A program made the position numbers and the translations under genes. From a bacterium (GTDB taxonomy: Bacteria; Zhuqueibacterota; Zhuqueibacteria; Residuimicrobiales; Krinioviventaceae): 64,000 nt of DNA. A model generated the notes under the pieces. That model was given only the letters and a program-made list of their open reading frames with translations. It had not been told where the DNA came from and searched no databases. The stretch is from the NCBI GenBank assembly GCA_963674595.2, contig CAXXFV010000009.1:64001-128000 (forward strand). Direction: 5' to 3'. How positions within the stretch are numbered: the first letter of the stretch is position 1; each line of letters opens with the position of its first letter. Shown here in pieces: positions 5,012 to 9,618 of the stretch.

Positions 5012-5092
5012 TCTTTTTATCTCCAATTTACTGTATTAGAGCCAATATGAAAATAGCATCAATTGTCAAGCCTAAACAGGAGCCTCATTAGA

Positions 5093-7603
5093 ATGTATGT
5101 GAGAAATACTGTAATATTTTTAATCAATTTATTTATAGGTGTTCATTTATTATCAGCCGCTGAGATAATGTATGAAAAGGATTGGGATAGACTTGTTTCC
5201 GGGGGACAAGCTGCACGATTGACCCGGGGTATTACAGAAGACCCTGTTTCAACAAATTTGTCTGAAAAAACAATAGAGACAATATTTGAATCCTTGAGGT
5301 TGCCTGTTCCCGAACAGAATCTGTTAACAATTTGGATCAACACCATTAAAAGCTACGGATGGGCACAATTTGAAACAGAGCCTGAATATCAGGATTATGC
5401 GGCCGTTCAAATTTTGGTTTTAAATCATTTTGGTGAACGCGTTGTCGCGCGTCAGTTTGATGAGCAGGGGAAAATTGCCGAAATTAGATGTGACCTTGAC
5501 GGAAACGGACTCTCTTTAAAACGTTTACAACAGCCTCAAGACAATGACCGGACTGTTTTTAGTACTGTTAAATCGCCCATTACATTTGTTTTAAATCAGG
5601 AACATTTTGAAAAATTTTTCTTTGAATCTCTCATAAATCTGGAATATCCGGGGTTTGAAAAAATAAAAAAAGCCTATAGTGAGAAAAAAACATTACTGGC
5701 TGTTTATGAACTGGCAGAATATTTTCGAAACAAACAAAGCAATATTTGGCCTGTTATTGAGCCGTCACATGATAACTTGATAAACGATGCTGCAGAAATG
5801 GTATTAAATCATCAGTTTGAATATAATGATCAACTTGTAACCTATGGTGACCATATCAACTGGTTTGATAACCCGATAGATGATTCAGAATGGCTGTGGA
5901 CGCTTAACCGCATGCCTCACTGGAAAACGCTTTTGCAGGGATATATTGAAACGACAAATGAATCCTATGCTCAAGAGTATAACGACGAGGTTTTGGATTG
6001 GATCATTCGAAATCCGGCGCCTGCTTTTCGACTTACCAGGGTCCCGGCATGGCGTAATTTGGAAGCGGGTATTCGCTGTTCGTCTGTCTGGCCGGAAACT
6101 TTATATGGATTTTTAGCATCACCGTCTTTTCAAGCTCACACAATTCAATTGATGCTTGCTTCATTATGGAGCCATGCTGAACATATTTATAAATTTCCTT
6201 CAGGCATGCGTTTTGTAAATAATTGGGTCATCATTGAATCTAGCGGACTTGCTGTTGTGGGAATGGGGTTTCCGGAATTTATAAATTCCGAAAAGTGGTC
6301 TGCTGAAGGACTTTCAAGGTTATCCGAGCAATTGGCAAAACAGGTTTACCCGGATGGTGTACAGCATGAGTTAGCCTCAGGGTATCATCTTTCCTGCCTG
6401 AGCAGTTTTTGCACGGCCTATGAAATCGCCAAAAAGAACAATGTGCAGATACCGGATAGTTACAGCACTACCTTGGAAAAAATGTTTGATTATTTACTTT
6501 ATGCAGCAACACCTTCCAGGGAATTGCCGCCTACTAATGACTCTTTTCGCAGTAATATTGTTACGTGGTTAAAAAAGGGTGCCGCACTTTTTAACAGACC
6601 GGATATGTTGTTTGTCGCTGAAAACGGACAGGAAGGCACCATGCCGGAAAAAACTTCCTATCATTTCCCGCATGCCGGACAAAGCATTATGCGCAGTAAC
6701 TGGTCTAAAAACGCCCTTTATTTGTTTTTTGATGCCGGTCCCTACGGTGTCAGCCATCAGCATGAAGATAAACTGCATATCGATGTATCCGCCTATGGCC
6801 GTGATTTTATTACAGACGCAGGAAAAGGGTCCTATGTTCCGGATAAATGGCGGTCCTATTTTACATCAACGGCGGCACACAATACCATTCTGATTGACGG
6901 CCTGGGACAAAATCGCAATGATAAAAAGGAAACTCACCGGTATAATACAAATGATAACTATTGGTTTACCGGAGATTCTGTTGATTTTGCCTATGGTTTT
7001 TATAACGATGGATATGGGCCCCAAAAGATAAATGTTGAACATAAAAGATTTATATTTTTCAAAAAAAATGAATATTGGCTTGTTTTGGACCTTTTGGATG
7101 GTTTACAATCTCAAAAGTTCGATGTTTTATACCATTTTCTGCCATGTGATTTTGATATTGATCCTGATAACAAGATGATCAGTACAACATTTTCCGACGG
7201 CAAGAATATTCTTTTATGTTCGCAAGGAACTGTTCCTCTTGAAACAAGTATCATTAAAGGACAGGAGGGACCGGAGCAGGGTTGGATATCAACAGCAACT
7301 GAAAAACGCCTTGAAGCGCCCACAGTTGTTTTTAGCGGTGAAAGTCAATTACCTGTCCTTGTAGCAACGCTGATAAAACCGTTCCAGGGAAATATGGATG
7401 CGAACGTAAATATCACCATTTCCCGGTCACCAGAGTACCAGGCCGCCGTTATTATTCATGCCGATTGGGGTGAAGATTGGTGGGTCGTTAATCTTAAAAA
7501 TGAAAACAAAATTACAATCGGTGTTGTGGATGAAAAAGCCAAATTCGGTTTTTGGCGAATTGTTAATGAGAATATTGTTCAGGAAATTCTCAAGGATTTT
7601 TAG
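5093..7603 (+). CDS. Heparinase II/III-family polysaccharide lyase, secreted
   Basis: Signal peptide; W..LEAGIR, NNW, QVYPDG.QHELASGYH, HQHEDKL and AHNTILIDG motifs; AGGAG RBS. Confidence 0.88.
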   Translation: MYVRNTVIFLINLFIGVHLLSAAEIMYEKDWDRLVSGGQAARLTRGITEDPVSTNLSEKTIETIFESLRLPVPEQNLLTIWINTIKSYGWAQFETEPEYQDYAAVQILVLNHFGERVVARQFDEQGKIAEIRCDLDGNGLSLKRLQQPQDNDRTVFSTVKSPITFVLNQEHFEKFFFESLINLEYPGFEKIKKAYSEKKTLLAVYELAEYFRNKQSNIWPVIEPSHDNLINDAAEMVLNHQFEYNDQLVTYGDHINWFDNPIDDSEWLWTLNRMPHWKTLLQGYIETTNESYAQEYNDEVLDWIIRNPAPAFRLTRVPAWRNLEAGIRCSSVWPETLYGFLASPSFQAHTIQLMLASLWSHAEHIYKFPSGMRFVNNWVIIESSGLAVVGMGFPEFINSEKWSAEGLSRLSEQLAKQVYPDGVQHELASGYHLSCLSSFCTAYEIAKKNNVQIPDSYSTTLEKMFDYLLYAATPSRELPPTNDSFRSNIVTWLKKGAALFNRPDMLFVAENGQEGTMPEKTSYHFPHAGQSIMRSNWSKNALYLFFDAGPYGVSHQHEDKLHIDVSAYGRDFITDAGKGSYVPDKWRSYFTSTAAHNTILIDGLGQNRNDKKETHRYNTNDNYWFTGDSVDFAYGFYNDGYGPQKINVEHKRFIFFKKNEYWLVLDLLDGLQSQKFDVLYHFLPCDFDIDPDNKMISTTFSDGKNILLCSQGTVPLETSIIKGQEGPEQGWISTATEKRLEAPTVVFSGESQLPVLVATLIKPFQGNMDANVNITISRSPEYQAAVIIHADWGEDWWVVNLKNENKITIGVVDEKAKFGFWRIVNENIVQEILKDF

Positions 7604-7710
7604 AATTATTAAAAACATTACGTTTTGTTTTTTAAGTAAAAATTTTTATCTTTTATTCGAATGTTTTTAGTGATTCTCAAAAAATATTGATTGTGGGAGG
7701 ATATAGAATA

Positions 7711-8727
7711 ATGCTTCCAATTCTTTTAACTAAAAAGAATAAGCTGTTTTTTTCATGTTTAATATTTTGCCTTGTCGTTTTTCAATGCTTTTTAGTTTAT
7801 GCGGAAAATGCGCCTAAAATGATTATTGAAAATGACGACATTGATATTGGCTTTGTCAATCCCGGTGAGGATGCTGTTGCCGAATTTTTGGTTATTAATA
7901 AAGGTGATGCTGACCTGGTGTTGGATAAAGTAAAACCTACGTGAGGCTGCACAGTGGCCAAATATGATTCGGTCATCCCGCCTGGTCAGACGGGAAAAAT
8001 AATTGCAAAATTAAAAACAAAAACATATCGTGGAAAAGTTCGAAAAAGTATTCGTGTGGTTTCCAATGATCCAAAGGAGCCGTCCCGATTTTTATCGTTA
8101 AATTGTGTCATTCGTGGCATCAAAATGTTTCCATCGTCCCGTCTTTATTTTACCGTGTTTGAAGGACAACCGCAAGCCCGTGAAATAACATTGGCAACAG
8201 TAGGAGAGGATGAAATTAAGGTTAAAATTGACAAAGGTGATTTTGACGGAGAAATTTCGCTGGTTAAACTGGACCAACCAAAACCGGATGATGATAATGA
8301 TTATTGGAACCAATATAAAATGACCTTTACATTGCCTGTTGACGAAAAAGAGGGCCGTTTTAATGGTAAAATAAAATTAAGCACAAACAGTAAATATGAT
8401 CCTGAAACAGAACTTTATTATTTAGTAACAGTCAACTCTTCCATTAATATTAATCCTCAAAATTTGAACTTTGACGATAATAATATTCAGCATTCTGTTT
8501 TTGTAAATAATAAGTTCGGTGATGATCTGAAAATTTTGGATGTTAAAGTTGAGCCGAATGTTATTGCTGTAGAGATTGAACAATTGGAACCGGGCCTGCA
8601 ATATGTGTTAAAATGTAAAAAACAAAATGGTTCGGAGGACGCTCCTGTTAAAGGTAAAATTCAGATAAAAACAAACAATCATTTTCACTCTAAAATAGTC
8701 ATTCCATTTACAATTACCGGTTCGTAA
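7711..8727 (+). CDS. Secreted DUF1573-type Ig-like protein with in-frame TGA (probable selenocysteine at codon 78)
   Basis: ORFs 7687-7944 and 7954-8727 are in the same frame; readthrough gives KVKPT-U-GCTVAKYDSVIPPGQTGKI, matching the DUF1573 CGCT...IPPG motif; GGGAGG RBS before ATG 7711. Confidence 0.8.
7945..7994 (+). promoter_or_regulatory. Candidate bacterial SECIS element
   Basis: Stem GGCC-A-AAT/ATG/ATT-C-GGTC (7956-7974) begins 11 nt after the TGA; second hairpin CCCG-C-CT-GGTC-AG-A-CGGG at 7977-7994. Confidence 0.5.
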
Positions 8728-8940
8728 TAATATGCAAAGGTAACGAAATGAAGATAAAGCTGATGGTTTTGGCGCTTTTGTTTGCGGGAACATCACATGC
8801 CGGGGACAAATGGGTATGTAAAATTTTACCATCAGAACATAATGTTAGCTGAAACTCTGACAGACACAGCATGGAATATACTTGAAAAAAATGGCAATCC
8901 GGATGTTTGTATTGCCGGAATAATAAATGACTGGTAAAAA

Positions 8941-9618
8941 ATGCACGGTAATTCTCTACAGGTTTTCAGCAACCAAACGGACATTCATCCAAACCTTGAA
9001 AAAACAATTGCCCATCACAAAACATCTGCTTATAAACGTCCCTATTCTGACCACACAGTAAAGGCCTTTCAAGAAATCATATCTATCTGGGAACAACATA
9101 GCGGTATTGTTATTCTGGATTCCTGTTGTGGTACAGGTTCCAGTTCAGTTTATTTTGCAAATAAAAATCCTGAAAGCCTTGTTATAGGTATAGACAAGTC
9201 ACCGGTTCGCCTGAAGAGAGGGTTGCATCACCCTGCGGTCATTCCGGATAATTTAATTCTTGTTCAGGCAAATGTTATTGATTTTTGGCGTCTTGCTCTT
9301 GAAAACCAAATGAGAGTCGATTACCATTATTTATTATACCCGAATCCCTGGCCGAAAAAGAAACACTTTAAACGAAGGTTTCACGCTCATCCGGTTTTCC
9401 CGGATTTTATTAAGCTGTGCCGAAATATTGAAATACGAAGTAATTGGGAAATCTATATCAGAGAATTTTCCCTGGCCATTGAGATAATAACGGGCGAAAA
9501 ATATACTTTTGAATCCTTTATACCGGAAAATTACATCAGTGATTTTGAAAAAAAGTATAAAAATAGCGGACATTTGCTTTATAAATTATTTTACAAAAAT
9601 AATGAAAAAATTATATAA
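8941..9618 (+). CDS. TrmB-like SAM-dependent methyltransferase
   Basis: LDSCCGTG motif I, IGIDKS, YPNPWPKKKHFKRR, RSNW..Y. Confidence 0.8.
   Translation: MHGNSLQVFSNQTDIHPNLEKTIAHHKTSAYKRPYSDHTVKAFQEIISIWEQHSGIVILDSCCGTGSSSVYFANKNPESLVIGIDKSPVRLKRGLHHPAVIPDNLILVQANVIDFWRLALENQMRVDYHYLLYPNPWPKKKHFKRRFHAHPVFPDFIKLCRNIEIRSNWEIYIREFSLAIEIITGEKYTFESFIPENYISDFEKKYKNSGHLLYKLFYKNNEKII

Follow-up and report, generated by a model that had tools for sequence, protein, structure and literature searches.

A probable selenocysteine in the U-G-C turn of a three-domain DUF1573 protein from a KSB1-type bacterium

We have analyzed a 64,000-nucleotide stretch of bacterial DNA (family Krinioviventaceae; GenBank assembly GCA_963674595.2, contig CAXXFV010000009.1, positions 64,001 to 128,000 of the forward strand), hereafter called the window, and find that the gene at positions 7711-8727 very probably encodes a genuine selenocysteine (Sec)-containing member of the DUF1573 / OS_HP2 family, with Sec at residue 78. 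Observed directly for this gene are a single reading frame, conservation of the in-frame TGA, homologues with Cys in its place, Sec machinery encoded by the genome and membership in the family. An earlier note on this DNA, made from the letters alone, had proposed the core of this reading, namely a DUF1573 protein bearing a signal peptide, several immunoglobulin (Ig)-like domains and Sec78 in a U-x-C motif, and the column conservation, the Sec genes and an AlphaFold model all support it.

The earlier note left open whether this subfamily had already been reported; it has, and the selenoprotein family of the window gene has been catalogued since 2007. OS_HP2 was introduced as a new selenoprotein family from the Olavius symbiont metagenome, for which the published account gives 2 sequences and no homologue with Cys (Zhang & Gladyshev, NAR 2007, PMC1976440), and the Global Ocean Sampling (GOS) table lists "OS_HP2, pfam07610, UxC" with 2 Sec sequences and 354 Cys homologues (PLoS Genet 2008, PMC2398784). 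The DUF1573 selenoprotein family (UxC/UGC) also appears in the tables of two reviews, PMC9312934 (2022) and PMC13188914 (2026), and NCBIfam holds a model for it, NF041425, named "OS_HP2 family (seleno)protein".

Results

A single reading frame interrupted by one UGA

Two open reading frames (ORFs), 7687/7711..7944 and 7954..8727, lie in a common frame on the forward strand, as the earlier note had seen, with the TGA at 7942-7944 as the sole interruption; apart from this codon the frame is open from the ATG at 7711 to the TAA at 8725-8727, giving a full gene (7711..8727) of 338 codons plus the stop. A Shine-Dalgarno-like GGGAGGA can be read from the sequence at 7695..7701 of the same strand, ~9-10 nt before the ATG. 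Translation with TGA as U yields the 338-residue product expected from read-through, LVLDKVKPT-U-GCTVAKYDSVIPPGQTGKI across the junction, with the motif T77-U78-G79-C80-T81. Residues 39-126 (7825..8088, forward strand), which include this motif, form a DUF1573 / HYDIN-VesB-like Ig domain according to Pfam and NCBIfam: PF07610 (DUF1573) scores 74.2 bits vs. a gathering cut-off of 26.1 (E = 8.8e-21), and PF22544 (HYDIN/VesB-like Ig domain) scores 47.2 bits. This match, together with the alignment of homologues, places the TGA at the first Cys of the DUF1573 C-G-C-T motif, which was also the placement made from the letters alone. Since the published family is characterized by pfam07610 and a Sec in U-x-C, the T-U-G-C-T at residues 77-81 of a PF07610 protein agrees with its description.

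Conservation of the TGA

Sequencing runs were compared as assembled contigs. At 7942-7944 there was no difference in the contigs of 4/4 runs, from 4 studies, which speaks to the possibility, raised in the earlier note, that the sequence data at 7944 might read otherwise; three of the four contigs are 97-98% strain variants carrying 19-31 other differences within 1201 nt. A search of 41 genomes, made up of the window's own and 40 related ones, yielded two near-full-length relatives of 38-39% identity in a sister genus (G001 and G011), each with one TGA that on translation stands at the same column as Sec78 (VAPT*GCTVADYDKVIPAGQTGKI). We also scanned 167 genomes of the phylum with NF041425 at E <= 1e-10 and obtained matches in 40 of them. 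Among the 43 matches listed, seven contain one TGA and 36 contain none (one of these 36 coming from an unpublished genome, G162), and in the 31 matches that were read, 7/7 TGAs fall at the first Cys of C-G-C-T while 24/24 others have Cys there. The seven TGA-bearing matches form two groups: five are of the window type (the window's genome G000, G001, G011 and two paralogues in G118), and two, in G048 and G049, have another architecture with RGS-U-GCTAALLS.

A scan of genome contigs for further loci returned nothing with the single window protein as query but succeeded with a four-sequence alignment; in the 80 loci kept, the column reads TGA in 4, TGC in 70 and TGT in 6, a TGA:Cys ratio of 4:76 that is biased towards Cys forms because a Cys codon was built into one of the two patterns used. 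Of the four TGA loci, three coincide with the places in G011, G001 and G118, and one, L075, from an uncultured bacterium, is new. In every TGA-bearing relative of the window type examined (G001, G011, G118:C35, G118:C383 and L075), the TGA occupies the Sec78 column, with identities to the window protein of 35-39% over nearly the whole length for G001, G011 and G118:C35, and of 31% for the best segment of L075. The earlier note had suggested looking for TGA and Cys alternating at this column in homologues, and these loci show just that; an in-frame UGA that aligns with Cys in homologues and is conserved in orthologues, the general mark of a selenoprotein, is thus what we found. As a side observation, G118 carries two Sec-containing three-Ig paralogues, at L046/L066 (G118:C383) and L064/L067 (G118:C35).

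Selenocysteine machinery

The window genome (6.6 Mb in 37 contigs, 97.6% complete) holds the sel genes whose presence the earlier note had left to be checked, all over their curated cut-offs: 1) tRNA-Sec, with 65.9 bits vs. a cut-off of 47 and an ARAGORN call of tRNA-SeC(tca); 2) selB, with 354 bits vs. 242; 3) selA, with 574 bits vs. 268; and 4) selD, with 389 bits vs. 125. The selD match (G000:C4:13190-14113, L018) itself holds one in-frame TGA (...VKCAG-*-AAKL...), and from its sequence SelD of this genome also appears to be a selenoprotein.

Cys homologues and switching between Sec and Cys

A word-indexed search retrieved P0004 from Thermoanaerobaculia, a full-length homologue with Cys (PS-C-GCTVTDFDKVIKPGQTGKI), and P0003, a 261-aa fragment that bears the label candidate division KSB1 and starts right behind the motif. 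An exhaustive search of representative proteins gave 11,991 matches at E <= 1e-3, 2,131 at <= 1e-10 and 12 at <= 1e-30, with P0008 (34% identity, PT-C-GCTVAEY) as the closest full-length Cys relative among the best 150. In the 46 of these 150 that were fetched for reading of the motif, the middle residue is mostly Gly, with CNC, CTC, CAC and CSC also seen. We then relied on an alignment of 44 sequences, comprising the window protein, two orthologues, P0004 and 40 full-length relatives, in which C78 and C80 are invariant in 44/44, with Cys standing for Sec in three of the rows. The three-Ig Cys homologues of Acidobacteriota / Thermoanaerobaculia (e.g. P0004 and P0019) have the length and the three-domain architecture of the window protein and the same motif, C-G-C-T-V-A-D-F/Y-D-K-V-I-x-P-G, but with Cys instead of Sec; their best-segment identity to the window protein in the locus scan is 24-31%, most of them covering most of the length, and, among flanks with a Pfam match, they often stand beside a Mur ligase gene and less often beside an O-methyltransferase gene, whereas the window is without that synteny.

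A maximum-likelihood tree was built with 40 rows from the part of the protein after the motif; G011, almost a duplicate of G001, was omitted, as were P0002 (98% identity to the window protein), the truncated fragments P0012 and P0014, and nine aligned Cys rows, and three fragment rows in the tree were taken as Sec forms solely because they begin right behind the motif. The window clade comprises 7 rows (support 100/99), six Sec forms and the Cys form P0008, the latter nested in the Sec clade, where its sister is a Sec fragment (97/91). Outside this clade fall L075 and P0091, a fragment that pairs with the Cys form P0019 (100/99). Parsimony puts the number of changes in Sec/Cys state at 4, at least 3 of which are forced by well-supported branches. 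We surmise that repeated Sec/Cys switching of this kind may be a new detail of the family.

Export and fold

The N-terminus (residues 1-31, 7711..7803, forward strand) resembles a signal peptide or a membrane anchor, with a basic TKKNK, a hydrophobic core and V-Y-A before E32; Kyte-Doolittle means over 15 residues are highest, 2.15-2.64, where the averaged segment begins at residues 10-16 (i.e. residues 10-30). We infer that this is a Sec-type signal peptide or anchor and that the protein would be exported, or else membrane-anchored and outward-facing, with a cleavage site after V-Y-A predicted by the -3/-1 rule. The AlphaFold2 model from the 44-sequence alignment has a mean predicted local distance difference test score (pLDDT) of 91.3 and a predicted template modelling score (pTM) of 0.77, and shows an N-terminal helix (8-31) followed by three beta-sandwiches at ~35-134, 136-242 and 245-335. 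T77-U78-G79-C80 forms in this model a short turn between strands 69-76 and 81-85. The second and third Ig-like beta-sandwiches, at residues ~136-242 (8116..8436) and ~245-335 (8443..8715), both on the forward strand, were assigned from AlphaFold and Foldseek; in the Pfam scan of the window protein the second matched no family at cut-off. Foldseek against the PDB returned generic tandem Ig/ASH-type matches, with cilia central-apparatus structures on top and titin, cadherins and adhesins lower down, and these modelled likenesses appear uninformative on function. A sequence search of the PDB with the window protein gave no match.

A conserved hairpin downstream of the UGA

The best candidate for a selenocysteine insertion sequence (SECIS) is a conserved hairpin at 7976..7995 of the forward strand, UCCCG-C-CU[GGUC]AG-A-CGGGA, with 7 bp, two bulges and a loop (7984-7987) that starts 39 nt past the UGA; its folding energy is -7.2 kcal/mol, and -8.0 when the folded stretch is extended by a base at either end. 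Like the fdhF-type SECIS of Escherichia coli and the bacterial SECIS (bSECIS) consensus, it is a stem-loop within the coding sequence downstream of the UGA, with a small G-G-U loop, 7 bp and about -7 to -8 kcal/mol. The fdhF loop also reads GGUC. The hairpin occurs in 6/6 TGA-bearing sequences of the window kind, L075 included, and is the sole hairpin common to all six. In G001 and G011 the stem is slipped by one base, with GGA replaced by GGG and CCG-CCU by CCC-GCU or CCU-GCC, while in L075 a Thr-to-Glu codon change and a Pro wobble change result in a perfect helix of 8 bp that keeps the GGUC loop.

Codon usage also bears on this region. We compared four Sec forms (the window, G001, G118:C383 and G118:C35) and found that 8/15 invariant-residue columns among codons +1 to +20 past the UGA have an identical codon, vs. 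5/53 elsewhere (Fisher p = 6e-4), which indicates that something beyond the protein constrains this stretch. Synonymous recodings drawn from local codon usage keep such a hairpin in 6-22% of cases, as compared with 5/5 of the real sequences tested, and 38/42 cells of the pair counts for 7976-7995 are paired, with one compensatory pair only. We rate the chance that 7976-7995 is the SECIS as about even. The conserved GGUC-loop hairpin at a spacing of 39 nt may be a new detail. In the strain variant of run X10, a C>T at 7981 (Pro to Ser) falls on the bulged, unpaired C of the hairpin and leaves the stem unaffected.

Other hairpins were considered and set aside. The earlier note had put a hairpin 11 nt past the TGA in the geometry of the fdhF SECIS, but the stem there, UGGCC/GGUCA at ~10-11 nt past the TGA (7954-7974; 5 bp, 11-nt loop), reaches only -2.2 kcal/mol, and the whole 75-nt region folds no better than shuffles (z = +0.33); we rejected it as SECIS. 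A second one, AUGA-UUCGG-UCAU at 7964-7976, was rejected with -0.6 kcal/mol and a loop start without G. A third, GGCUGC-ACA-GUGGCC at 7945-7959 (-5.6 kcal/mol), has its loop only 6 nt from the UGA and thus falls outside SECIS models; its stem codons are fixed in the four sequences compared, except for the outermost-pair GCA in G118:C35, its loop wobble base varies (ACA/ACC/ACU), and G048 and G049 have GGCU-GCAC-AGCC at this place. In the latter two genomes a further, SECIS-like hairpin, CUUCUG[AGUU]CAGAAG, lies 21 nt past the UGA and fits the consensus in spacing and loop, with -5.5 to -6.6 kcal/mol on its own. An Rfam scan of the window found one tRNA only.

Discussion

Relation to the published family

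The window protein shares with OS_HP2 the Pfam domain pfam07610, the U-x-C / U-G-C motif and the position of Sec at the first Cys of C-G-C, and in both Cys homologues far outnumber Sec forms (2 vs. 354 in the table of PMC2398784; here 4 TGA vs. 76 Cys codons). It differs in that the NCBIfam model of OS_HP2 is a domain of 98 positions, whereas the window protein, with its 338 aa, has two further Ig-like domains, and in that OS_HP2 came from deltaproteobacterial symbionts of Olavius and the window protein from a KSB1-type lineage (a loose label as we use it here). What the window gene adds to a catalogued selenoprotein family is, in our view, this KSB1-type clade and the three-domain architecture; as judged by the tables and descriptions of the published family, the three-Ig architecture in such a clade may be new. 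We take DsbA, DsbG-like and MerP proteins to be periplasmic types. All three families already stand in the selenoprotein table of PMC2398784, so that an exported selenoprotein is less unusual than the earlier note held. With regard to the lineage, the NCBI titles of the metagenome-assembled genomes L070, L071 and L072 are inconsistent: those from the same family as the window name Actinomycetota and Calditrichota, and one from the same class is titled candidate division KSB1.

Evidence weighing against the proposed reading

Several results weigh against our reading of this gene, the first four of them against the assignment of the SECIS to 7976-7995: 1) the spacing of 39 nt lies outside the 16-37 nt between UGA and loop given for the bSECIS consensus in the legend to Fig. 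2 of PMC13188914, while the loop and the 7-bp stem fit (the same source mentions a subset of putative bSECIS elements that fail the consensus model), and when spacings of 10-45 nt were scanned for bulge-free hairpins, none within 16-37 nt was common to all six sequences; 2) covariation in the hairpin is not above shuffles, 152/500 of which reach the observed value; 3) folding energy of the 60 nt past the codon, measured against synonymous recodings, does not separate Sec from Cys forms, with z-scores of -1.65, -2.74, -1.11, -1.83, -0.91, +0.37 and -0.05 for 7 Sec forms and a mean of -0.66 for 22 Cys forms (24 loci less L036 and L041, the latter unpublished); 4) a comparable G-loop hairpin exists at the same place in 36/76 Cys-form loci, because the stem overlaps a conserved peptide motif, P-G..T-G, that is encoded as CCGG..CCGG in GC-rich genomes; 5) the NF041425 score of the window protein, 92.2 bits with Cys for Sec, is below the 100-bit cut-off (73.4 bits for the window locus in the six-frame genome search), which was reached by 0/167 genomes of the phylum, the best having 97.7 bits; 6) the runs, being available as contigs, show presence only; and 7) the window has no neighbour in common with its relatives around G001, G118, G048 and the 40 genome-contig loci, and its own neighbourhood says nothing on function.

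In this three-Ig DUF1573 family, the conserved peptide I-P-x-G-x-T/E-G-K might inevitably encode a CCNGG...CNGG hairpin ~30-40 nt past the first Cys codon, and thereby provide a pre-adapted SECIS. We consider this idea speculative and rather unlikely to be right; if true, it would explain both the repeated Cys/Sec swaps at one column and the unusual spacing of 39 nt outside the consensus.

How the protein may be made and what it may do

We postulate the following course for the window gene. A ribosome arriving at the UGA at 7942-7944 would encounter SelB with Sec-tRNA(Sec), recruited by a hairpin within the coding mRNA, most likely the one at 7976-7995 with its GGUC apical loop, and selenocysteine would be put in at position 78. 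The N-terminal hydrophobic segment would direct the unfolded chain through the Sec translocon, and outside the cytoplasm the chain would fold into three Ig-like beta-sandwiches with T-U-G-C in a tight turn that joins two strands of the first of them. There, the U-x-C pair might cycle between selenol/thiol and selenylsulfide, exchanging with thioredoxin-like partners. The parts played in this course by the hairpin as SECIS, by export and by the chemistry of the U-G-C turn are our deductions.

With respect to that chemistry, there is an even chance, as we see it, that the U-G-C turn is redox-active, with a selenylsulfide/selenol-thiol couple on an exposed turn. We favor this reading because thiol-redox genes recur near Sec forms and because Sec generally replaces redox-active Cys (a statement made in PMC1794560). 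In G048 and G049 (L055/L057/L068; G048:C37 and G049:C84), DUF1573(U) carries, fused to its C-terminal side, a c-type cytochrome domain with two CxxCH motifs, and the G048 fusion gene adjoins genes for a thioredoxin-domain protein, a MauE-family membrane protein and a multihaem cytochrome. A Thioredoxin_9 gene lies two genes upstream in G118:C35, and in L075 an AhpC/TSA-thioredoxin-like gene is found directly downstream. The fusion, the thioredoxin-like neighbours and the nested Cys form P0008 point to extracytoplasmic redox chemistry on a non-oxidoreductase fold. The Cys form within the Sec clade, the G048/G049 cytochrome c fusion and the thioredoxin-like neighbours also offer material for comparison. 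One of the two G118 paralogue loci has, besides the Thioredoxin_9 gene, a glycyl-radical enzyme upstream.

The main alternative to redox cycling is that the U-G-C turn binds a soft metal (Cu(I), Hg, Cd or similar) and that the protein acts as an extracytoplasmic metal chaperone or scavenger in which Sec raises the affinity, a reading that we consider less likely. A beta-sandwich that exposes a C-x-C pair on a turn is well suited to two-coordinate metal binding, the non-Gly middle residues of the alignment (CNC, CTC, CAC and CSC) are in keeping with such a site, and the selenoprotein table of PMC2398784 includes MerP-like and mercuric transport proteins. However, no copper or mercury gene was seen among the Pfam hits of 13 window ORFs, 16 ORFs of relatives and 80 flanking frames, and it is thioredoxin-like, MauE and cytochrome c genes that recur beside the Sec forms.

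Could the TGA be a plain stop? The gene would then be either a recent pseudogene or a pair of genes, one for a 77-aa piece and another for a 257-aa piece starting at GTG 7954. The earlier note had stated that the downstream ORF is without a ribosome-binding site; yet a Shine-Dalgarno-like GAGG does stand at 7943-7946, 7 nt before this GTG, a sequence that is created by the UGA-GGC junction itself. Protein collections also hold the gene in pieces, in line with the expectation that it would be mis-called as two: the 77-aa N-terminal piece of the window is entry P0009, the 257-aa C-terminal piece corresponds to P0002, with 98% identity, and C-terminal fragments beginning at query position 82-84, right behind the motif, account for at least 7 of the best 150 database relatives. 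Such starts are consistent, as far as the sequences go, with gene callers beginning there, and the practical point of this work is one of annotation, as public protein collections hold the gene in pieces. That the stop is a plain one we nevertheless consider very improbable, for the following reasons: 1) the TGA column and an intact downstream frame are kept in relatives of only 31-39% identity; 2) each piece would comprise half a beta-sandwich, as the DUF1573 domain (39-126) spans the break; 3) the 257-aa piece has no signal segment; 4) synonymous sites just after the TGA are constrained; and 5) the Cys form P0008 is nested in the Sec clade. Reading of the UGA by a near-cognate tRNA (Cys or Trp), or under a recoded genetic code, in place of Sec-tRNA(Sec), might be invoked in view of the non-canonical spacing of the SECIS candidate, but has scarcely any chance of being correct, given that TGA is the terminal stop of 8/28 long ORFs in the window and the code is thus standard, that the genome keeps selA, selB, selD and tRNA-Sec with a TGA in the selD match itself, and that homologues have an invariant Cys at this position, as is usual for Sec.

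Gene neighbourhoods

The genes around the selenoprotein gene in the window, as assigned by Pfam, begin with a major facilitator superfamily (MFS) transporter (841-2127) and a thioredoxin-like protein (2247-2807), the latter ~5 kb from the selenoprotein gene with three genes between; a PHP-domain protein and SpoVG follow in that order, and a heparinase II/III gene (5063-7603) stands directly upstream. Downstream are a TrmB-like methyltransferase (8941-9618), an Opp-type ABC transporter and then a Ser/Thr kinase with TPR repeats, the last of the neighbours listed. The heparinase II/III-family protein has 846 aa and an N-terminal hydrophobic stretch that is signal-like, with no evident link to the selenoprotein.

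Among relatives, a protein of ~550 aa with a type IX secretion system (T9SS) sorting tail is encoded downstream in G001 and G118:C35, and both G118 loci have URO-D-like genes nearby. The 80 flanking frames from the 40 genome-contig loci (within L074-L118, mostly Acidobacteriota / Thermoanaerobaculia) contain Mur ligase domains in 24 and O-methyltransferase in 6; the Mur ligase frames are upstream and on the opposite strand in 24/24 cases and recur among acidobacterial Cys forms. In an RNA run, only 0.07 of the sampled words were present. Just downstream of the selenoprotein gene in the window, a short ORF at 8749-8853 (34 codons, MKIKLMVLALLFAGTSHAGDKW...) has a start resembling a signal peptide and ends at a TGA; a second in-frame TGA comes soon after, which makes read-through of this ORF unlikely.

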